A stretch of DNA of 64,000 bases, taken from the NCBI GenBank assembly GCA_051313645.2, contig JBNRSN020000089.1, positions 2,480,001 through 2,544,000 of the forward strand, read 5' to 3'. Shown here one piece after another: positions 1-14,900 of this stretch. The stretch comes from Centroscyllium fabricii (taxonomy: Eukaryota). Numbering within the stretch: the first letter of the stretch is position 1; the number at the start of each line of letters is the position of its first letter. The notes beneath the pieces were generated by a model that made no database searches, was not told where the DNA came from, and saw nothing but the letters and a program-made list of their open reading frames with translations. The translations under genes and the position numbers were made by a program.

Positions 1-3000
1 TATCCATCTGTGTACAATACATCAGAGAATGTCCATCTGTGAACAGTAAATCAGAAAATATCCATCTGTAAACAATACATCAGACAATGTCCATCTGTGT
101 ACAATACATCAGGCAATATCCATCTGTGTACAATATATCAGACAATATCCATCCGTGTACAGTATATCAGACAATGTCCATCTGTGTACAATATATCAGA
201 CAATATCCATCTGTGTACAATACATCAGACAATGTCCATCTGTGAACAATACATCAGACAATATCCATCTGTGTACAATACATCAGACAATGTCCATTTG
301 TGTACAGTACATCAGACAATTTCCATCTGTTTACCGTACATCAGACAATGTCCTTCTGTGTACAATACATCAGACAATGTCCATCTGTGAACAGTACATC
401 AGACAATAACCATCTGAGAGCAAAACATCAGACAATATCCATCTGTGTACAATACATCAGACAATGTCCATTTGTACAATACATCAGACAATGTCCATCT
501 GTGTGCAATATATCAGACATTATCCATCTGTGTACAATATATCAGACAATGTCCACCTGTGAACAATACATCAGACAATATCCATCTATGAACAATATAT
601 CAGACAATGTCCATCTGTGTACAATACCTCAGACAATATCCATCTGTGTACAATACATCAGACAATATCCATCTCTGTACATTACATCAGACAATGTCCA
701 TCTGTGTACAATACATCAGACAATATCCATCTGTGTACAATACATCAGACAATGTCCATCTGTGAACAATACATCAGACAATGTCCATCTGTGTAGAATA
801 CATCAGACAATGTCCACCTGTGTACAATACATCCGACAATGTCCATCTGTGTACAATACGTCAGACAATGTCCGTCTGTGTAGAATACATGATACAATAT
901 CCATCTCTGAACAATACATCAGACAATGTCCATCTGTGTACAATACATCAGACAATATCCATCTGTGTACAATACATCAGACAATGTCCATCTGTGTACA
1001 ATACGTCAGACAATGTCCATCTGTGAACAATACATCAGACAATATCCATCTGTGAACAATACATCAGACAATATCCATCTGTGTACAATACACCAGACAA
1101 TGGCCATCTGTACAATACATCAGACAATGTCCATCTGTGTACAATACGTCAGACAATGTCCATCTGTGAACAATACATCAGACAATATCCATCTGTGAAC
1201 AATACATCATACATTATCCATCTGTATACAATACATCAGACAATGCCCATCTGTGAACAATACATCAGACAATATCCATCTATGAACAATACATCAGACA
1301 ATGTCCATCTGTGTACAATACATCAGACATTGTTCATCTGTAGAATACATCGGACAATGTCCATCTGTGTACAATATATCAGACATTATCCATCTGTGTA
1401 CAATACATCAGACAATGTCCATCTGTGAACAATAAATCAGAAAATATCCATCTGTAAACAATACATCAGACAATGTCCATCTGTGTACAATACATCCGAC
1501 AATATCCATCTGTGTACAATATATCAGAAAATATCCATCTGTGTACAGTATATCAGACATTGTCCATCTGTGTACAATACATCAGACAATATCCATCTGT
1601 GATCAATACATCAGACAATGTCCATCTGTGAACAATTCATCAGACAATATCCATCTGTGTACAATGCATCAGACAATGTCCATTTGTGTACAGTACATCA
1701 GACAATATCCATCTGTTTACAGTACATCAGACAATGTCCTTCTGTGTACAATACATCAGACAATGTCCATCTGTGAACAATACATCAGACAATATCCATC
1801 TGTGAGCAATAAATCAGACAATATCCATCTGTGTACAATACATCAGACAATGTCCATCTGTACAATACATCAGACAATGTCCATCTGTGTGCAATATATC
1901 AGACATTATCCATCTGTGTACAATACATCAGACAATGTCCACCTGTGAACAATACATCAGACAATATCTATCTATGAACAATATATCAGACAATGTCCAT
2001 CTGTGTACAATACATCAGACAATATCCATCTGTGTACAATACATCAGACAATATCCTTCTGTGTACAGTACATCAGACAATGTCCATCTGTGTACAATAC
2101 ATCAGACAATATCCATCTGTGTACAATACATCAGACAATGTCCATCTGTGAACAATACATCAGACAATATCCTTCTGTGAACAATACATCAGGCAATATC
2201 CATCTGTGTACAATATATCAGACAATGGCCATCTGTACAATACATCAGACAATGTCCATCTGTGTACAATACATCAGACATTATACATCTGTATACAATA
2301 CATCAGACAATGTCCATCTGTGAACAATACATCAGACAATATCCATCTATGAACAATACATCAGACAACATCCATCTGTGTACAGTACTTCAGACAATGT
2401 CCATCTGTGTACAATACATCAGACAACATTCTTCTGTGTACAGTACTTAGACAATGTCCATCTGTGTACAATACATCAGACAATATCCATCTGTGTACAA
2501 TATATCAGACAATGTCCATCTGTGAACAATACATCAGACAATGTCCATCTGTGTAAAATACCTGAGACAATGTCCATCTGTGCACATTACATCAGACAAT
2601 GTCCATCTGTGTATAGTACGTCAGACAATGTCCTTATTTTAACAGTACATCAGACTATGTCCATCTGTGTACAATAAATCAGACACTGTCCATCTGTGTA
2701 CAATACATCAGAAAATGTCCACCTGTGAACAATACATAAGAAAATATCCATCTGTGTACAGTACATCAGATTATGTCCATCTGTGTACAATACATCAGAA
2801 AATGTCCATCTGTGAACAATACATAAGACATTATCCATCTGTGTACAATACATCAGACATTATCCATCTGTGTACAATACATCAGAAAATGTCCATCTGT
2901 GAACAATACATAAGACATTATCCATCAGTGTACAATACATCAGATATTATCTACCTGTGAACAATACATCAGACAATGTCCATCTGTGTACAATACATCA

Positions 3001-5844
3001 GACAAATGTCCATCTGTGTACAATACATCAGACAATATCCATCTGTGTAAAATACATCAGACAATGTCCATCTTTGTCGAAAACATCAGACAATATCCAT
3101 CTGTGAACAATACATCAGAAAATGTGCAACTGTGCACAATACATAAGACATTATCAATCTGTGTACAATACATCAGACATTATCCATCAGTGTACAATAC
3201 ATCAGACAATATCCATCTGTGAATAATACATCAGAAAATGTCCATCTGTGTACAATACATCAGACATTATCCATCTGTGAACAATACATCAGAAAATAAC
3301 CATCTGTGTACAATACATCAGACAATATCCATCTGTGTACAATACATCAGTAAATGTCCATCTGTGTATAATACATCAGACAATATCCATCTGTGTACAA
3401 TACATCAGACATTATCCATCTGTGAGCAATACATCAGACATTATCCATTTGTGTACAATACATCAGACATGGTCCATCTGTGAACAATACATCAATCATT
3501 ATCCATCTGTGTACAATCCATCAGACAACATCCATCTGTGTACAATACATCAGAGAATGTCCATCTGTGTACAGTACATCAGACAATATCTATCTGTGAA
3601 CAATATATCAGACAATGTCCATCTGTGTACAATACATCAGACAATATCCATCTGTGTACATTACATCAGACAATGTCAATCTGTGAACAATACATCAGAC
3701 AATGTCCATCTGTGTACAATACATCAGACAATGTCCATCTGTGTACAATACATCAGACAATATGCATCTGTGTACAATATATCGGACAATGTCCATCTGT
3801 GTACAATACATCAGACAATTTCCATCTGTGAACAATACAACAGACAATTTCCATCTGTGTACAATACATCAGACAATGTCCATCTGTGCACAATACATCA
3901 GACAATGTCCATCTGTGAACAATGCATCAGACAATGTACATCTATGTACAATACATCAGACATTGCCCATCTGTGTACAATATATCAGACATTATCCATC
4001 TGTGTACAATACATCAGAAAATGTCCATCTGTGTACAATGCATCAGACAATGTCCATCTGTGAACAATACATCAGACAATACCCATCGTGTAGAAAACAT
4101 CAGACATTGTCAATCTGTGTACAATACATCAGACAATATCCATCTGTGTACAATACATCAGACATTGTCCGTCTGTGTACAATACATCAGACAATGTCCA
4201 TCTGTGAACAATACATCAGACAATGTCCATCTGTGTACAATACATCAGACAATGTCCATCTGTGAACAATACATCAGAAAATATCCATCTGTGTACAATA
4301 CATCAGACAATGCCCATCTGTGAACAATACCTAAGACAATGTCCATCTGTGAACAATACATCAGATTTTGTCCATCTGTGTACAATACATCAGACATTGT
4401 CCATCTGTGTACAATAAATGAGACATTGTCCATCTGTGTACAATACATCAGAAAATATCCATCTGTGTACAATACATCCGACAATGTCCATCTATGAACA
4501 ATACATCAGACAATGTCCATCTTTGAACAATACATCAGACAATGTCCATCTGTGTACAATACATCAGACAATGTCCATCTGTGTACAATACATCAGACAT
4601 TATGCATCTGTGTACAATACATCAGACAATGTCCATCTGTGTACAATACATCAGACAATGTCCATCTGTGCACAATACATGAGACAATATCCATCTGTGA
4701 ACAATAAATCAGACAATGTCCATCTGTGTACAATACATCAGAAAATGTCCATCTGTGAACAATCCATTAGACAATATCCATCTTTGTACAGTACATCAGA
4801 GAAAGTCCATCTGTGTACAATACATCAGACAATGTCCATCTGTGAACAAAACATCAGACAATATCCATCTCTGAACAATACATCAGAGGATGTCCATCTG
4901 TGTACAATACACCAGACAATATCCATCTGTGTACAATATATCAGACATTATCCATCTTTATACAATACATCAGACATTATCCATCTGTGTACAATACATC
5001 AGACAATATCCATCTGTGAACAATACATCAGACAATGTCCATCTGTGTACAATACATCAGACAATGTCCAACTGTGTACAAAACTTAAGACAATGCCCAT
5101 CTAGAGTGCAATACATCAGACCATGTCCATTTGTGTACAATACGTCAGACAATGCCCATCTGTGAACAATACATCAGACAATATCCATCTGTGAACAATA
5201 CATCAGACAATATCCATCTGTGTACAATACATCAGATATTGTCCATCTGTACAATACATCGAACAATGTCCATCTGTGTACAATACATCAGACATTATCC
5301 ATCTGTGTACAATAGATCAGACAATGTCCATCTGTGAACAATAAATCAGACAATATCCATCTGTAAACAATACATCAGACAATGTCCATCTGTGTACAAT
5401 ACAACAGACAATATCCATCTGTGTACAATATATTAGACAATATCCATCTGTGTACAGTATATCAGACAATGTCCATCTGTGTACAAAACATCAGACAATA
5501 TCCGTCTGTGTACAATACATCAGACAATGGCCATCTGTGAACAATTCATCAGACAATATCCATCTGTGTACAATATATCAGACAATGTCCATTTGTGTAC
5601 AGTACATCAGAAAATGTCCATCTGTTTACAGTACATCAGACAATGTCCTTCTGTGTACAATACATCAGACAATGTCCATCTGTGAACAATACATCAGACA
5701 ATATCCATCTGTGAGCAATACATCAGACAATATCCATCTGTGTACAATACATCAGACAATGTCCATCTGTACAATACATCAGACAATGTCCATCTTTGTG
5801 CAATATATCAGACATTATCCATCTGTGTACAATACATCAGACAA
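1..5844. repeat. 29-bp tandem satellite, left arm (continues off the window edge)
   Basis: Continuous tandem copies of ACAATACATCAGACAATGTCCATCTGTGT with recurrent variants (ATG/ATA, GTAC/GAAC, and 27-, 28- and 30-bp indel monomers). Ends at ...CAGACAA where non-satellite sequence begins. Confidence 0.99.
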
Positions 5845-6706
5845 ACAGCAGCAGAGAGGCCAGCGCGGGCTATTTAAAAAAGCCAGGACAGCGTGGAGGT
5901 CAGCGCGGGCTATTTAAAAGAAAGCCTGAAAGCGCTTGGAAAAGAACAGCAGCAGAGAGGCCAGCGCGGGCTATTTAAAAAAGCCAGAACAGCGTGGAGG
6001 TCAGCGCGGGCTATTTAAAAGAAAGCCTGAAAGCGCTTGGAAAAGAACAGCAGCAGAGAGGCCAGCGCGGGCTATTTAAAAAAGCCAGGACAGCGTGGAG
6101 GTCAGCGCGGGCTATTTAAAAGAAAGCCTGAAAGCGCTTGGAAAAGAACAGCAGCAGAGAGGCCAGCGCGGGCTATTTAAAAAAGCCAGGACAGCGTGGA
6201 GGTCAGCGCGGGCTATTTAAAAGAAAGCCTGAAAGCGCTTGGAAAAGAACAGCAGCAGAGAGGCCAGCGCGGGCTATTTAAAAAAGCCAGAACAGCGTGG
6301 AGGTCAGCGCGGGCTATTTAAAAGAAAGCCTGAAAGCGCTTGGAAAAGAACAGCAGCAGAGAGGCCAGCGCGGGCTATTTAAAAAAGCCAGAACAGCGTG
6401 GAGGTCAGCGCGGGCTATTTAAAAGAAAGCCTGAAAGCGCTTGGAAAAGAACAGCAGCAGAGAGGCCAGCGCGGGCTATTTAAAAAAGCCAGAACAGCGT
6501 GGAGGTCAGCGCGGGCTATTTAAAAGAAAGCCTGAAAGCGCTTGGAAAAGAACAGCAGCAGAGAGGCCAGCGCGGGCTATTTAAAAAAGCCAGAACAGCG
6601 TGGAGGTCAGCGCGGGCTATTTAAAAGAAAGCCTGAAAGCGCTTGGAAAAGAACAGCAGCAGAGAGGCCAGCGCGGGCTATTTAAAAAAGCCAGAACAGC
6701 GTGGAG
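5844..6706 (+). repeat. 101-bp tandem monomers (8 full plus a 55-bp partial) forming the 5' end of the LINE
   Basis: Units start at 5844, 5945, 6046, 6147, 6248, 6349, 6450, 6551 and 6652. They are identical except for one G/A site (GCCAGGACAG vs GCCAGAACAG; order G,A,G,G,A,A,A,A,A). Each unit is itself two related subunits of 40 and 61 bp. Confidence 0.97.
5861..6688 (+). promoter_or_regulatory. Putative multimeric Pol II promoter: 17 copies of CAGCGCGGGC-TATTTAAAA
   Basis: A GC-rich element directly abuts a TATA-like TATTTAAAA twice per 101-bp unit (first at 5871 and 5911). There are 6 intact CpG per unit. The position at the 5' end of a LINE fits a promoter, but function is inferred and untested. 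Confidence 0.55.
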
Positions 6707-6852
6707 TCGTGGAGCAGCCCTGTGGGCAAGCAGAACTCTGGACTGGGGACACTTAAGGGGGGATTGAAACAGGAAGGGGAGGGGACGGGTAACAGGAAGG
6801 GGAGGGGCCTTTATACTGGTATTGGTATATAGGGAAAGCAGAGGCTAAACCC

Positions 6853-6875
6853 GAGTCACTACATGGTAGTGACTC
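6853..6875 (+). other. Perfect 10-bp hairpin in the unique 5' UTR
   Basis: GAGTCACTAC-ATG-GTAGTGACTC; the two arms are exact reverse complements. Confidence 0.8.
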
Positions 6876-6947
6876 CCACCCTTCCTCCTCCTCTAACCTT
6901 TAGGGGTGAACTTTAGAAGTTTAAGACAGACTAAGGTAGGACTTTAA

Positions 6948-7967
6948 ATGCAGTATTTCATGGGAACTGTGAGGGGATGGATGAGAAAAATGGGAAGATG
7001 CTCCTCCTGCAAAATGTTCCAAGGGGGGAGGGGGAAGGGGAGCCAGGCTGGAAGAATTTGTAAAAAATGCAACCAGCTACAGCGCCTTATAGTAAGAGTA
7101 AGGGGGCTGGAACAGGACCTGAAGAAACTCAAGGTCCAGAGGAAGGCAGAGGAGAAACAGGTCCAGGATGGGGAAAGGGGAAGGAACCTGGAGGAACCTA
7201 AAAACATTAAAGAGGCAGAGGGAGGCACAAAGCAACCAGGGGAGACGGTACATACACCCATGCAGAAGGGCAGGCAGGAGTCGGAGAGAAGGGAGGGGGA
7301 GGATGGGGCGAGGCCCCCAGGGGACAGTCACCCCGGCAACAGGGATACAGTCCTGAACCATGAAGTGGGGGAAGATCGAGCAGGGGGAGACCGAGAGGAG
7401 GAGAACTCGGTGACCAGACCAGAAGAGGTGGTACAAAAAGAAGGAGGGGGAAGGCTGAGAGCAATAGTGATGGGCGATTCAATGGTGAGTAGGATGGAAA
7501 CGAGGTTTTGTGGGAGCAAAAGGGACTCGAGGATGGTTTGTTGCTTCCCAGGGGCTAAGGTCAAAGACATCTCGGACCGTGTTGACGGCACTCTAAACGG
7601 GGAGAGCAAACAGGTACAGGTCGTGGTACACATAGGTACGAACGACATAGGGAGGAAAAAAGAGGAAGACATTAAGAGGGAATTTAAGGAACTCGGAAGG
7701 AAACTGAGAGGCAAAACAAATCATGCCACAATTTCTGGGATCCTACCAGTGCCACGGGAGGGGGGGAGGAAAAATGAAAAAAGAAAGCGAATAAACGCGT
7801 GGCTACAAGATTGGTGCGTAAGGGAGGGCATGAGATTCGTGGACAATTGGGGATCGTTCTGGGGAAAGTGGGATCGGTATGATGTGGACGGCATGCACCT
7901 GAACCGAAGGGGCATCAGCATTCTGGGTGGGAAACTCGCTTCGGCCATAAAGGGGGATTTAAACTAA
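6948..7967 (+). CDS. CR1 ORF1 protein: zinc finger, coiled coil and SGNH/GDSL esterase domain (339 aa)
   Basis: CSSC-X16-CKKC (6999-7070) followed by the heptad-like LQRLIVRVRGLEQDLKKL, a charged low-complexity linker, and SGNH blocks GDS, PGA, HIGTND and DGMH. This architecture is established for vertebrate CR1 ORF1. The true start may be one of the nearby downstream Met codons. Confidence 0.93.
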   Translation: MQYFMGTVRGWMRKMGRCSSCKMFQGGRGKGSQAGRICKKCNQLQRLIVRVRGLEQDLKKLKVQRKAEEKQVQDGERGRNLEEPKNIKEAEGGTKQPGETVHTPMQKGRQESERREGEDGARPPGDSHPGNRDTVLNHEVGEDRAGGDREEENSVTRPEEVVQKEGGGRLRAIVMGDSMVSRMETRFCGSKRDSRMVCCFPGAKVKDISDRVDGTLNGESKQVQVVVHIGTNDIGRKKEEDIKREFKELGRKLRGKTNHATISGILPVPREGGRKNEKRKRINAWLQDWCVREGMRFVDNWGSFWGKWDRYDVDGMHLNRRGISILGGKLASAIKGDLN

Positions 7968-7997
7968 TTGGCCAGGGGGATAGGGAAACGGGCAGGG
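7958..7997 (+). other. Candidate -1 ribosomal frameshift signal: T_TTA_AAC slippery heptamer, stop codon, G-quadruplex motif
   Basis: ORF1 ends GAT TTA AAC TAA, so 7958-7964 is X_XXY_YYZ in the correct phase. The ORF2 frame is -1 relative to ORF1 and open from 7883. GGGGG-ATA-GGG-AAAC-GGG-CA-GGG lies at 7975-7997. Confidence 0.65.
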
Positions 7998-8131
7998 AAA
8001 CAGAGGGGAGACCGGGGAACAACGAGAAAAAAGGGGGAGAACCAAGGGCAAAGGAAAGGGAAAGGGGTCTGAAATGCGCCTACTTCAATGCAAGAAGTAT
8101 AAGGAACAAGGCAGGGGAGTTAGGGGCATGG

Positions 8132-10834
8132 ATGGCGGCATGGGACTTCGATGTGGTGGCCATTACAGAGACATGGCTGGAGCAGGGACAGGACTGGATG
8201 ATTGGGGTCCCGGGATACAGAAGCTTCTGGAGGAGCAGGGAGGAAGGAAAGCGCGGGGGGGGAGTAGCACTGCTGGTCAAGGACAACGTGACGGCTACAG
8301 AAAAAAACTTTGAGGGGGACACACAAACGGAGGTAGTATGGGCGGAGCTTAGGAATAGGAAGGGGGCGGTAACGCTAGTGGGAGTCTTTTATAGACCACC
8401 AAATAGCAACAGGGAGGTGGAGGAGGAAATTGCGCGACAAATAAAGGAAAGATGTGAGGGACAGAGGGTAGTTATAATGGGAGATTTCAATTTCCCTAAT
8501 ATAGACTGGAATCTAGGTAGGTCAAGGAGTGCAGAGGGAGAGAGTTTCTTACAATGCGTACAAGAAGGTTTCCTGACACAATACGTGGAGGAACCAACAA
8601 GGGGGGGTGCAACGTTGGACCTGGTTCTGGGAAATGAACCAGGCCAAGTGGTAGAACTGGGGGTAAGGGAGCACTTTGGGGACAGTGACCACAACTCGGT
8701 GACGTTCACAATAGTAATGGAGAAGGATAGGAGCAAGAGGCAGGGCAAGGTATACAGCTGGGGGAGGGGAAATTACGACAGGGTTAGGCACGATTTAGGT
8801 AACACCAATTGGGAACGGGAACTTGAGGGAAGAGGAACGGAAGAAAAGTGGAGAGTGTTCAGGGAGCAAATTATGAAAGCCCTGGACAAGCATGTCCCGA
8901 GTAGGATGGGAAGAAAGGGTAAGATGAGAGAACCATGGATCACGAAAGAGGTAGAACAATTAGTAAAAAGGAAGAAGGAAGCATATGATAAAATGAGAAA
9001 ACAGAGTACAGAGGGGGCGGGAAGGGAGTACAAAGAAGCAAGGAAAAAACTGAAGAATGGGCTAAGGAAGGCAAAGGGTGGGCATGAGAAGGCATTAGCG
9101 GGAAGGATAAAGGAGAACCCCAAGGCTTTCTATGCTTACGTAAGAAATAAAAGGATGACTAGGGTAAAAGTAGGGCCGATCAAAGACAGCAACGGAGAAA
9201 TGTGCACGGAGCCAGAGGAAATTGGGGAAGCACTAAATGAATATTTTGCGTCCGTGTTCACAAAGGAGAGGGAACTAAAAGCAGAGGGGGAGCTCAAGAT
9301 ACAAGGGGAAAAGATGGGGGAAGTAAATATTCAGAGGGGGGAGGTATTAGAAATTTTGGAGAAACTAAAGGTAGACAAATCTCCTGGGCCGGACGGGATT
9401 TATCCAAGGATTCTCTGGGAGGCGAGGAAAGAAATCGCAGAGCCACTGACCTCTATCTTTAGATCATCGCTATCCTCGGGGATAGTCCCTAAGGACTGGA
9501 GAGAGGCGAATGTGGCTCCCATATTTAAAAAGGGGAGCAGGGACGCGCCAGGGAACTACAGACCAGTCAGTCTCACCTCAGTGGTCGGAAAGGTGATGGA
9601 AAAGGTCCTGAAGGACAGGATCTACGACCATCTAGACAGGGGCGAATTAATCAGAAGCAGTCAGCACGGATTCGTTAAGGGCAAATCGTGCCTGACCAAC
9701 CTGATAGAATTCTTTGAAGAGGTGACCAGGAGTGTGGATGAGGGAAAGGCGGTTGATGTCATATATATGGACTTCAGCAAGGCGTTCGACAAGGTCCCGC
9801 ACGATCGACTTATGAGGAAAGTAAGGAGATGCGGGGTAAGCAACAAAGTGGTGGGATGGATTGAGAACTGGCTGGCTCAAAGGAAGCAGAGGGTAGTGGT
9901 AGATGGCCAATACTCGGGCTGGAGACCGGTCACCAGTGGGGTACCACAGGGGTCGGTGTTGGGGCCACTACTGTTTGTAATCTTCATCAATGACTTGGAG
10001 GAGGGGACTGAGGGGTGGGTCAGCAAGTTTGCGGACGACACAAAGATAGGGGGAGAAGTGGATGAGGAGGAAGGAGGTAGAAAGATTCAGAGGGATATAG
10101 ACAGGATGCAGAGCTGGGCTGAAGAATGGCAGATGGAGTTCAACACGGGGAAATGCGAGGTGATGCACTTCGGCAGGGCAAATAGGAAGAGGGAATATAG
10201 GGTCAATGGCAGAATCCTGAGTGAAGCAGAGGAGCAAAGGGATCTGGGAGTATATGTACACAGATCACTGAAGGCTGCCACCCAGGTGGACAAAGCAGTG
10301 AAAAAGGCCTATGGGGTATTGGCCTTCATCAACAGGGGAATAGAGTTTAGGAACCGGGAGGTCATGCTACAGCTGTACAGGTCACTGGTGAGACCACACT
10401 TGGAGTACTGTGTGCAGTTCTGGGCACCGTACTACAGGAGAGATGTGGAGGCGCTGGAGAGGGTGCAGAGGAGATTCACCAGGATGCTGCCGGGAATGGG
10501 AGGAAGGTCATACGAGGAGAGGTTGAGGGAGCTGGGACTCTTCTCCCTGGAACGGAGAAGGAAGAGAGGGGACTTGATAGAGATGTTTAAAATGATGAAG
10601 GGGATCGATAGAGTAAACGTGCAAAGACTGTTTCCCCGGGCGGGAAGAACGTCAACAAGAGGACACGAGCACAAGATTCAAGGAGGAAGATTCAGAAGGG
10701 ATGGCAGGGGCAGGTTCTTTACACAGAGAGTGGTAGGGGAATGGAATAGGCTACCATCTGAAATAGTGGATGCGGACAGTCTGGGTGCTTTTAAAAGGAT
10801 GATAGACAGGTACATGGAGGGGAAGGAACAGTAG
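8132..10834 (+). CDS. CR1 ORF2: apurinic-like endonuclease and reverse transcriptase (900 aa from first ATG; true coding region extends upstream to about 7964)
   Basis: APE motifs ITETW, YRPP, GDFN, LDLVL, SDH. RT motifs KSPGPDGI, NYRPVSLTS, QHGF, DFSKAFD, GVPQGSVLGPLLF, FADD. No stops or frameshifts. The same frame is open upstream and encodes LKCAYFNARSIRNK (8069-8110), the first APE motif. Confidence 0.97.
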   Translation: MAAWDFDVVAITETWLEQGQDWMIGVPGYRSFWRSREEGKRGGGVALLVKDNVTATEKNFEGDTQTEVVWAELRNRKGAVTLVGVFYRPPNSNREVEEEIARQIKERCEGQRVVIMGDFNFPNIDWNLGRSRSAEGESFLQCVQEGFLTQYVEEPTRGGATLDLVLGNEPGQVVELGVREHFGDSDHNSVTFTIVMEKDRSKRQGKVYSWGRGNYDRVRHDLGNTNWERELEGRGTEEKWRVFREQIMKALDKHVPSRMGRKGKMREPWITKEVEQLVKRKKEAYDKMRKQSTEGAGREYKEARKKLKNGLRKAKGGHEKALAGRIKENPKAFYAYVRNKRMTRVKVGPIKDSNGEMCTEPEEIGEALNEYFASVFTKERELKAEGELKIQGEKMGEVNIQRGEVLEILEKLKVDKSPGPDGIYPRILWEARKEIAEPLTSIFRSSLSSGIVPKDWREANVAPIFKKGSRDAPGNYRPVSLTSVVGKVMEKVLKDRIYDHLDRGELIRSSQHGFVKGKSCLTNLIEFFEEVTRSVDEGKAVDVIYMDFSKAFDKVPHDRLMRKVRRCGVSNKVVGWIENWLAQRKQRVVVDGQYSGWRPVTSGVPQGSVLGPLLFVIFINDLEEGTEGWVSKFADDTKIGGEVDEEEGGRKIQRDIDRMQSWAEEWQMEFNTGKCEVMHFGRANRKREYRVNGRILSEAEEQRDLGVYVHRSLKAATQVDKAVKKAYGVLAFINRGIEFRNREVMLQLYRSLVRPHLEYCVQFWAPYYRRDVEALERVQRRFTRMLPGMGGRSYEERLRELGLFSLERRRKRGDLIEMFKMMKGIDRVNVQRLFPRAGRTSTRGHEHKIQGGRFRRDGRGRFFTQRVVGEWNRLPSEIVDADSLGAFKRMIDRYMEGKEQ

Positions 10835-10868
10835 GGGGGAAGGGAAAAATCAGAGATGGACTAAGGGC

Positions 10869-10905
10869 GGCACTACATTGAGGGCCCAAGGGCCTGTACA
10901 GTGCT
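10869..10905 (+). other. CR1-type 3' UTR stem-loop (putative RT recognition signal)
   Basis: GCAC/GTGC, TACA/TGTA and GGCC-CAAG-GGCC pairings can form one extended hairpin. A 3' stem-loop before a microsatellite tail is established for CR1/L2 'stringent' LINEs. Confidence 0.7.
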
Positions 10906-10906
10906 G

Positions 10907-10932
10907 TATGTTCTATGTTCTATGTTCTATGT
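10907..10932 (+). repeat. LINE 3' microsatellite tail (TATGTTC)x3 plus TATGT
   Basis: tatgttc tatgttc tatgttc tatgt lies immediately before the satellite resumes. Confidence 0.93.
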
Positions 10933-11909
10933 AATGTCCACCTGTGAACAATACATCAGACATTGTCCATCTTTGTGCAATATATCAGACATTATCCATC
11001 TGTGTACAATACATCAGACAATGTCCACCTGTGAACAATACATCAGACAATATCTATCTATGAACAATACATCAGACAATGTCCATCTAGAGTGCAATAC
11101 ATCAGACAATGTCCATTTGTGTACAATACATCAGACAATGTCCATCTGTGAACAATGCATCAGACAATATCCGTCTGTGAATAATACATCAGACAATATC
11201 CATCTGTGTACAATACATCAGGCATTGTCCATCTGTACAATACATCGGACAATGTCCATCTGTTTACAATACATCAGACATTATCCATCTGTGTACAATA
11301 CATCAGAGAATGTCCATCTGTGAACAATAAATCAGAAAATATCCATCTGTAAACAATACATCAGACAATGTCCATCTGTTTACAATATATCAGACAATAT
11401 CCATCTGTGTACAATATATCAGACAATATCCATCCGTGTACAGTATATCAGACAATGTCCATCTGTGTACAATACATCAGACAATATCCATCTGTGTACA
11501 ATACATCAGACAATGTCCATCTGTGAACAATACATCAGACAATATCCAGCTGTGTACAATACATCAGACAATGTCCATTTGTGTACAGTATATCAGACAA
11601 TGTCCATCTGTTTACAGTACATCAGACAATGTCCTTCTGTGTACAATACATCAGACAATGTCCATCTGTGAACAGTACATCAGACAATAACCATCTGAGA
11701 GCAAAACATCAGACAATATCCATCTGTGTACAATACATCAGACAATGTCCATCTGTACAATACATCAGACAATGTCCATCTGTGTGCAATATATCAGACA
11801 TTATCCATCTGTGTACAATATATCAGACAATGTCCACCTGTGAACAATACATCAGACAATATCCATCTATGAACAATATATCAGACAATGTCCATCTGTG
11901 TACAATACA

Positions 11910-14900
11910 TCAGACAATATCCCTCTCTGAACAATATATCAGAGGACGTCCATCTGTGTACAATACATCAGACAATATCCATCTGTGTACAATATATCAG
12001 ACATTATCCATCTGTATACAATACATCAGACATTATCCATCTGTGTACAATAAATCAGACAATATCAATCTGTGAACAATACATCAGAAAATGTCCATCT
12101 GTGTACAATACTTCAGATAATGTCCAACTGTGTACAATACATAAGACAATGTCCATCTAGAGTGCAATAAATCAGACAATGTCCATTTGTGTACAATACA
12201 TCAGACAATGTCCATCTGTGAACAATACATCAGACAATATCCGTCTGTGAACAATACATCAGACAATATCCATCTGTGTACAATACATCCGACATTGTCC
12301 ATCTGTACAATACATCGGACAATGTCAATATGTTTACAATACATCAGACATTATCCATCTGTGTACAATACATCAGAGAATGTCCATCTGTGAACAATAA
12401 ATCAGAAAATATCCATCTGTAAACAATACATCAGACAATGTCCATCTGTGTACAATACATCAGAAAATATCCATCTGTGTACAATATATCAGACAATATC
12501 CATCCGTGTACAGTATATCAGACAATGTCCATCTGTGTACAATATATCAGACAATATCCATCTGTGTACAATACATCAGACAATGTCCATCTGTGAACAA
12601 TACATCAGACAATATCCATCTGTGTACAATACATCAGACAATGTCCATTTGTGTACAGAACATCAGGCAATTTCCATCTGTTTACCGTACATCAGACAAT
12701 GTCCTTCTGTGTACAATACATCAGACAATGTCCATCTGTGAACAGTACATCAGACAATAACCATCTGAGAGCAAAACATCAGACAATATCCATCTGTGTA
12801 CAATACATCAGACAATGTACATCTGTACAATACATCAGACAATGTCCATCTGTGTGCAATATATCAGACATTATCCATCTGTGTACAATATATCAGACAA
12901 TGTCCACGTGTGAACAATACATCAGACAATATCCATCTATGAACAATACATCAGACAATGTCAATCTGTGTACAATACATCAGACAATATCCATCTGTGT
13001 ACAATACATCAGACAATATCCATCTCTGTACAGTACATCAGACAATGTCCATCTGTGTACAATACATCAGACAATATCCATCTGTGTACAATACATCAGA
13101 CAATGTCCATCTGTGAACAATACATCAGACAATGTCCATCTGTGTAGAATACATCAGACAATGTCCACCTGTGTACAATACATCCGACAATGTCCATCTG
13201 TGTACAATACGTCAGACAATGTCCGTCTGTGTAAAATACATGATACAATATCCATCTCTGAACAATACATCAGACAATGTCCATCTGTGTACAATACATC
13301 AGACAATATCCATCTGTGTACAATACATCAGACAATGTCCATCTGTGTACAATACGTCAGACAATGTCCATCTGTGAACAATACATCAGAAAATATCCAT
13401 CTGTGAACAATACGTCAGACAATATCCATCTGTGTACAATACATCAGACAATGGCCATCTGTACAATACATCAGACAATGTCCATCTGTGTACAATACAT
13501 CATACATTATCCATCTGTTTACAATATATCAGACAATGTCCATCTGTGAACAAAACATCAGACAATATACATCTATGAACAATACATCAGACAGCATCTA
13601 TCTGTGTACAGTACTTCAGACAATGTCCATCTGGGTACAATACATCAGACAACATCCAACTGTGTACAGTACTTCAGACAATGTCCATCTGTGTACAATA
13701 CATCAGACAATATCCATCTGTGTACAATATATTAGACAATGTCCATCTGTGAACAATACATCAGACAATGTCCATCTGTGTAAAATACATGAGACAATGT
13801 CCATCTGTGTACAGTACATCAGATTATGTCCATCTGTGTACAATACATCAGAAAATGTCCATCTGAGAACAATACATAAGACATTATCCATCTGTGTACA
13901 ATACATCAGACATTATCCATCTGTGTACAATACATCAGAAAATGTCCATCTGTGAACAATACATAAGACATTATCGATCAGTGTACAATACATCAGACAT
14001 TATCTACCTGCGAACAATACATCAGACAATGTCCATCTGTGTACAATACATCAGACAAATGTCCATCTGTGTACAATAAATCAGACAATATCCATCTGAG
14101 TAAAATACATCAGACAATGTCCATCTTTGTCGAAAACATCAGACAATATCCATCTGTGAACAATACATCAGAAAATGTGCAACTGTGCACAATACATAAG
14201 ACATTATCAATCTGTGTACAATACATCAGATATTATCCATCAGTGTACAATACATCCGACAATATCCATCTGTGAATAATACATCAGAAAATGTCCATCT
14301 GTGTACAATACATCAGTCATTATCCATCTGTGAACAATACATCAGAAAATAACCATCTGTGTACAATACATCAGACAATATCCATCTGTGTACAATACAT
14401 CAGTAAATGTCCATCTGTGTACAATACATCAGACAATATCCATCTGTGTACAATACATCAGACATTATCCATCTGTGAGCAATACATCAGACATTATCCA
14501 TTTGTGTACAATACATCAGACATGGTCCATCTGTGAACAATACATCAGTCATTATCCATCTGTGTACAATCCATCAGACAACATCCATCTGTGTACAATA
14601 CATCAGAGAATGTCCATCTGTGTACAGTACATCAGACAATATCTATCTTTGAACAATATATCAGACAATGTCCATCTGTGTACAATACATCAGACAATAT
14701 CCATCTGTGTACATTACATCAGACAATGTCAATCTGTGAACAATACATCAGACAATGTCCATCTGTGTACAATATATCGGACAATGTCCATCTGTGTACA
14801 ATACATCAGACAATATGCATCTGTGTACAATATATCGGACAATGCCCATCTGTGTAGAATACATCAGACAATTTCCATCTGTGAACAATACATCAGACAA

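Follow-up and report, generated by a model that had tools for sequence, protein, structure and literature searches.

A probable programmed -1 frameshift signal at the ORF1/ORF2 junction of an esterase-type CR1 LINE

How the second open reading frame (ORF2) of long interspersed nuclear elements (LINEs) is translated is a standing question, and reviews, in the portions covered here, give reinitiation or coupling alone as the answer for L1 and SART1. We take up this question for a LINE of the esterase-type CR1 group that lies in a 64,000-nucleotide stretch of DNA from Centroscyllium fabricii (assembly GCA_051313645.2, contig JBNRSN020000089.1, positions 2,480,001 to 2,544,000 of the forward strand; the whole stretch is called the window below). 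Judging from sequence comparisons, we consider it highly probable that this element makes its endonuclease and reverse transcriptase (RT) as a 1,295-residue ORF1-ORF2 fusion through programmed -1 frameshifting on a U_UUA_AAC heptamer. The coronavirus 1a/1b shift site has the identical heptamer in the identical phase, and the original prediction, made from the window alone, had named the junction coronavirus-type. The name fits the heptamer and fails for what follows it: in the window LINE a stop codon adjoins the heptamer, the downstream sequence is purine-rich, and neither a pseudoknot like the three-stemmed one of coronaviruses nor an Rfam match was found downstream. UUUAAAC has also served as a test slippery site (PMC3919603; this and all other papers cited by PMC number were covered in part).

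Several described systems share one or another trait with this LINE. Retroviral and long terminal repeat (LTR) gag-pol arrangements likewise fuse a structural ORF to an enzyme ORF at a set ratio (PMC11835228, PMC5911963). Unlike these, the window LINE is a non-LTR element, the product of its ORF1 is an esterase protein, and Pfam matched no protease domain in its proteins, so a fusion would stay unprocessed or need a host protease. TRE5-A and TRE3-A of Dictyostelium, for which a -1 frameshift is stated as required for ORF2 translation (PMC5911963), resemble the window LINE, by description only, as APE-type non-LTR elements with two ORFs, and differ from it in host kingdom and ORF1 type. In human L1 and silkworm SART1, ORF2 is translated by reinitiation or coupling (PMC2881922, PMC5972666, PMC3708506); they share a bicistronic RNA with the window LINE, and their ORF2 depends on translation of ORF1. 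ZfL2-1 and other CR1-clade LINEs with an esterase ORF1 have the SGNH esterase ORF1p in common with it (PMC3905857). Single-ORF CR1/L2 elements bearing a 2A sequence likewise recode at the N-terminal end of ORF2 (PMC3708506), except that 2A cuts one ORF into two products whereas the window LINE would join two ORFs. The original prediction had left novelty to a literature check. The Dictyostelium precedent removes it for LINEs as a group, and a CR1 frameshift was not described in the literature searched, which did not extend to the primary CR1 papers or Repbase, so an older remark is possible. In the covered portions of PMC5006619, PMC4255032, PMC11835228, PMC3905857 and PMC5009743 nothing on it appears; the word "frameshift" is nowhere in that of the ZfL2-1 paper (PMC3905857), and "CR1" is absent from the searched portion of the 2016 frameshifting review (PMC5009743).

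The junction in the window element

The features on which the argument turns are as follows, all on the plus strand.

6948..7967, ORF1, 339 residues, with a C-terminal SGNH/GDSL esterase (PF13472, E 2.4e-12, residues 198-322)
7883..10834, ORF2 frame, 983 residues from stop to stop, with PF03372 (E 1.1e-21) and PF00078 (E 2e-38)
7958..7964, slippery heptamer T TTA AAC, in the phase of ORF1
7965..7967, ORF1 stop TAA, adjoining the heptamer (TAG or TGA elsewhere among lineages)
7964..8068, linker in the -1 frame, charged and Gly-rich, 35 codons without ATG
7975..7997, G-runs, GGGGG at +11 and then three GGG, which may form a G-quadruplex or cause a pause
8069..8131, first endonuclease strand and helix (LKCAYFNARS...), 5' of the first ATG at 8132

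On re-reading, the layout is as first described. The 3' end of ORF1 reads AAG GGG GAT TTA AAC TAA, so that the heptamer stands in the X_XXY_YYZ phase, and it is the only in-phase heptamer of this class within ORF1. The -1 frame is free of stops from 7883 to 10834, and its earliest in-frame ATG is at 8132, with a CTG at 8069. Recomputing the conceptual fusion returned the same 1,295 residues, 339 from ORF1 and 956 from the trans-frame part, with the charged linker between them. An ORF2 protein started at the ATG had been expected to have a truncated endonuclease, and the domain comparisons agree. The ATG is trans-frame residue 57, 17 residues after the start of the Pfam endonuclease match at residue 40; an exonuclease III match begins at trans-frame residue 37 (exonuclease III residue 2); and in a comparison with the solved structure, trans-frame residue 48 pairs with residue 22 of the L1 endonuclease. 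From the structure alignments, about 30 N-terminal L1-equivalent residues would be missing, including the first strand with its Asn, which presumably has a catalytic role.

In the mechanism that we propose, U_UUA_AAC would supply the last two codons of ORF1, and most ribosomes would halt at the adjoining stop and free ORF1p. A minority would slip one base back with tRNA-Leu and tRNA-Asn and would then read ...GDLN-LIGQGDR..., a linker under low constraint, followed by the endonuclease.

The window copy is extremely young, as all 40 scored DNA matches are 100% identical over 7700-8300 and all 150 scored protein matches to the element are 100% identical. Genome-wide (7.2 Gb searched), its lineage has 6,083 junctions, and the first 100 among the matches listed all read TTTAAAC TAA. 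Identical copies in these numbers mean that the junction is neither an assembly error nor the decay of a single copy, and the number of junctions places the layout in the active master.

The same count bears on a joining of the two frames in the RNA, whether by splicing to an AG just past the stop or through a base inserted in the heptamer by a slipping polymerase. The representatives do have an AG before the G-run and a CTAAY resembling a branch point, and copies with an inserted A, apparently arisen more than once, occur in the sister family described below. LINE proteins mainly copy the RNA that encoded them, so corrected genomic copies should dominate if the RNA were corrected; in the window lineage, a base added after AAA gave 0 matches against the 6,083 uncorrected junctions. 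The phase of the AG also differs among lineages, and no pyrimidine tract accompanies it. In contigs of four runs of unknown kind, which are silent on expression, no indel or splice-like joint was seen at the junction. We regard RNA-level joining as very improbable.

Conservation of the heptamer and the open linker

To sample related elements without reference to the junction, an esterase-motif pattern lying upstream of it was used, which gave 38,464 genome matches against 151 for a reversed control. The first 100 consecutive esterase-LINE loci among the matches listed, chosen blind to the junction, were tallied. The heptamer and stop stand in phase at 66, and at 2 more after an upstream indel; 11 have a single mismatch, 10 are fusions by a one-base insertion, and in the remaining 11 the junction is of another kind or absent; a single chimeric derivative accounts for 7 of them. 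A second search pattern was not enriched overall over its control, and its first 30 loci among the matches listed gave one further lineage. The seven chimeric loci (L122, L128, L151, L153, L170, L175 and L186, at about 961-1253) carry an identical 293-bp fragment of window-lineage ORF1 joined, at one breakpoint, to the apparent antisense 3' end of another CR1, and are likely an amplified chimera or a 3' transduction.

The heptamer can be set against its background in representatives of ten lineages, which share 34-94% amino-acid identity and have a mean identity of 0.45 at four-fold sites. Across the lineages the Leu-Asn at the end of ORF1 is coded TTA AAC, while the stop itself varies among TAA, TAG and TGA. 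The residue before Leu varies as well (Asp, Gly, Ser, Ala, Phe, Val, His or Cys), yet its codon ends in T. Elsewhere in the same representatives, one codon is shared in 0 of 11 invariant-Leu columns and 1 of 7 invariant-Asn columns, T is fixed at the third position in 0 of 207 variable columns, and TTA and AAC make up 19% of Leu codons and 41% of Asn codons. The ten were picked from heptamer-bearing copies and are related, which tells against counting them as ten independent trials; the 100-locus tally is for that reason the unbiased figure. A heptamer that is merely inherited sequence, or is held by protein constraint on a C-terminal Leu-Asn, would be in keeping with homologous proteins that end Leu-Asn and with the shared ancestry of the lineages, but divergence at synonymous sites is extensive and fixation is absent from the comparable Leu and variable columns, and we give this explanation next to no credence. 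By these comparisons the junction feature is real, with nucleotide-level selection acting on it, and the heptamer is conserved at the nucleotide level beyond what the protein needs. The original prediction had staked itself on heptamer and phase being conserved in related elements, and it passes.

Downstream of the heptamer, the linkers of the ten lineages measure 39, 41, 43, 55, 55, 56, 64, 65, 66 and 83 codons, nine distinct lengths, and all ten are open in the -1 frame, with each other frame holding 1-9 stops. In eight of the ten lineages the -1 frame is closed 7 codons 5' of the heptamer, and the overlap contains no ATG. A linker ATG is mostly absent in four of the ten lineages, and the first-strand codon is CTG, CTA, TTG, ATG or GTG depending on lineage. 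As read from these sequences, the downstream ORF is without a conserved start codon of its own. As the linkers of L063, L071 and L084 illustrate, near-identical linkers occur in lineages whose ORF1 ends differ, and one ORF1 type carries two linkers (55 and 83 codons), which suggests that families recombined just 3' of the heptamer.

Two routes to a separate ORF2 protein have to be weighed against these linkers. Termination-reinitiation of the L1/SART1 type, with a stop at TAA and a restart nearby in the -1 frame (here at the ATT of TAATT), is what has been reported for the best-studied LINEs (PMC2881922, PMC5972666). It would account for the open linker, and 29 of 92 loci, the window locus among them, have an ATT overlapping the stop, in a TAATT that resembles the UAAUG of SART1; the junction of a distant esterase LINE, described below, also resembles a stop plus ATG. 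Whereas L1 and SART1 use a 63-nucleotide spacer or UAAUG, the window type has overlapping ORFs and a fixed heptamer, and among the codons that overlap the stop at the 92 loci there is no ATG, hence no SART1-type stop-start, and 61 are non-initiating ones (GTA, ACT, AGT, AAT, AAA, AAG or GTT). Reinitiation also leaves the fixed T TTA AAC nucleotides unexplained, and a clade lacking the ORF1 stop went on amplifying (see below). We judge it unlikely. An independent internal start, at CTG 8069 or at linker ATGs particular to a lineage, would make the heptamer a by-product. CTG 8069 precedes the first endonuclease strand, and an in-frame ATG lies before the conserved Asn in 6 of 10 lineages. When the CTG, which the original prediction had itself offered as an alternative, was checked, its equivalent proved not to be conserved, since two lineages have CTA there and a third mostly does, and the ATG positions vary by lineage. 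An internal start needs no open, in-phase linker back to the heptamer, yet such a linker is seen over all nine lengths, and neither phase nor heptamer is explained. We hold an internal start to be less likely still than reinitiation.

A sister family with the two frames joined

In a sister family of the window lineage, junctions reading T TTA AAA CTA (A form) or T TTA AAT CTA (T form) fuse ORF1 to ORF2. The T form, the commonest fused form with 863 genome matches, codes ...RALN-LISGGEV..., which equals the shift product predicted. Among the first 100 of 3,839 junctions of this family in the matches listed, the canonical form accounts for 72, the T insertion for 22 and the A insertion for 6. 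The fused copies fall at these loci.

L176:325-4266, minus strand of the locus, and L145, L149, L189, L190 and L201-L220: fused copies of the sister family
L155, L173, L199 and L238-L240: A-form copies of the sister family

In one fused copy, 1,317 codons run on as a single open frame. A tree was built from local alignments of the 43 of 52 fetched copies that passed a coverage filter and was rooted on a sister lineage. In it the canonical copies enclose a clade of 25 fused copies (support 0.986), and one A-inserted copy falls outside that clade. Mean terminal branches are 3.4% for canonical copies, 1.65% for the A form and 0.67% for the T form. The tree thus points to the fused clade as the youngest of its family, descended from frameshifted (canonical) ancestors, with the A form apparently first and the T form after it.

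Selection on the fused clade was gauged from shared derived changes, defined as those in at least three fused copies and absent from canonical ones, with CpG sites excluded. In the ORF2 core, the ratio of nonsynonymous to synonymous changes is 33:39 for shared changes and 209:70 for private ones (p = 1e-5), and on this count the fused-clade ORF2 is under purifying selection. A clade that amplified with a selected ORF2 likely had masters that, lacking an ORF1 stop, provided functional enzyme in cis. Because this single-ORF sister lineage, made by a one-base insertion, kept amplifying with its ORF2 under purifying selection, the fusion that we propose for the window LINE would likely be functional in cis. 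PMC3708506 argues that ORF1 functions must be separate from ORF2, and the fused clade would be a counter-case. Both inserted forms are still X_XXY_YYZ heptamers, and their -1 frame stops after two codons; the signal could act in reverse here, a slip yielding an ORF1-only product. We found no published comparison of slipperiness among UUUAAAC, UUUAAAU and UUUAAAA in the literature searched. Overall, the frameshift reading of the original prediction draws support from the conservation of the heptamer, from the unconserved CTG 8069 and from an in-frame sub-lineage that codes the predicted peptide.

Stimulator, distant relatives and genomic setting

The weakest step of the proposed mechanism is the pause, which would likely come, with no pseudoknot, from the adjoining stop together with a conserved G-run 9-11 nucleotides on, possibly a G-quadruplex; the stop right behind the heptamer may by itself suffice. 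At 85 of 92 loci, a run of at least five G begins 9 to 12 nucleotides past the heptamer, where chance would give about 1% per 3-nucleotide window. In nine of ten lineages the downstream window is at or above the 97.5th percentile of a G4Hunter-type score within the element, a figure somewhat inflated as the best of eight windows, and ViennaRNA folds 5 of 10 representatives with a quadruplex. Engineered G-quadruplexes raise -1 shifting on UUUAAAC to at most about 7%, with a best spacing of 6-8 nucleotides (PMC3919603). Since the spacing here is longer and the G-run doubles as Gly-Gly coding sequence, its part as a stimulator is a hypothesis.

A number of observations weigh against programmed frameshifting at this junction. 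Local folding found no stable or conserved hairpin or pseudoknot downstream of the heptamer, Rfam gave 0 matches at the junction, and no conserved long-range duplex partner was found across the ten lineages; the esterase CCLPG region reaches the top five long-range scores in 4 of 10 lineages and is never best in more than one. The G5 run of the window follows a 10-nucleotide spacer, beyond the 6-8 nucleotides reported as optimal for stimulation. Purifying selection on linker residues could not be detected (shared 26:9 versus single 47:25). Six of the ten lineages, the family of the fused clade among them, have an ATG either within the linker or in the first-strand codon, at positions that differ, and ORF2 could start independently there. 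In the fused clade, constraint on ORF1 looks relaxed (shared 13:5 versus 55:22), whereas ORF1 of canonical copies is constrained (2:9 versus 169:54); this fits independent ORF2 initiation as well, and it argues against a reverse slip being essential. Finally, a distant esterase LINE (L245/L246, about 1940-2450) lacks the heptamer, and the signal is therefore not universal. Its ORF2 lies in ORF1's own frame after an in-frame TGA, with an ATG two codons on, and looks like another junction type, read through or reinitiated.

That LINE comes from metagenomes, where six loci were found and ORF2 was matched only at L245/L246, which are identical at the junction. Related DNA was not found in the viral contigs searched, and prokaryote genomes gave two weak matches without ORF2. 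Cross-species support for the junction comes from proteins: Leu-Asn is the end of 108 out of 120 homologues (103, plus 5 without the motif used), one group of them at about 31% identity, and clustering the 108 gives three clusters, of 88, 19 and 1. Rays and a shark are the sources of the named homologues. In a few homologues the protein runs on, reading YLKLGRG or GFKLDVQG, as the heptamer's -1 frame would have it. Among the database proteins, P0010, P0052 and P0068 pass the Leu-Asn end into an apparent -1 frame; P0068, named "hydroxyacid oxidase 2 isoform X1" at source, contains CR1 esterase and endonuclease sequence. P0018, labelled Pseudomonas aeruginosa, is 56% identical to the window ORF1, likely through mislabelling or contamination.

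The remaining features of the element describe its ends, again on the plus strand.

5844-10932, full-length single LINE, interrupting a 29-bp satellite array
5844..6706, tandem array of the 5' untranslated region, 8.5 copies of a 101-bp unit (Tandem Repeats Finder, 99% matches)
10907..10932, 3' tail, (TATGTTC) x 3.7

The element has the architecture of the esterase-type CR1 group, with an SGNH/GDSL esterase in ORF1, an APE endonuclease followed by RT in ORF2 (order from Pfam), no LTRs and a short-repeat 3' tail. The CR1 label is a provisional one, drawn from this architecture and from sequence motifs. Read from sequence, the ORF1 N-terminus has a Cys-pair motif and a coiled-coil-like stretch. 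Each near-identical 101-bp unit of the 5' array contains two TATA-like GCGCGGGCTATTTAAAA motifs, and the array is similar to monomer-type LINE promoters. The rest of the window, 1-5844 and 10933-64000, is the 29-bp satellite array that hosts the insertion; its units have 86-87% matches in the scanned part (1-14000), and composition is uniform to 64000.

A wider claim, that esterase CR1, a major clade of animal LINEs, expresses its RT by a gag-pol-like -1 shift driven by an adjoining stop and a natural G-quadruplex in place of a pseudoknot, with one-base flips to a single ORF, is one that we put forward tentatively and think more doubtful than not. For the family itself, the fixed slippery site makes CR1 ORF2 translation directly testable. 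If the frameshift is real, the CR1 enzyme would covalently carry ORF1p, annotation of ORF2 from its first ATG would cut the endonuclease short, and cellular genomes would hold another conserved -1 frameshift signal, this one without a pseudoknot. The in-frame sub-lineage would then amount to an experiment of nature with the frameshift locked in, and it suggests that amplification does not strictly need a fixed ratio of ORF1p to enzyme.
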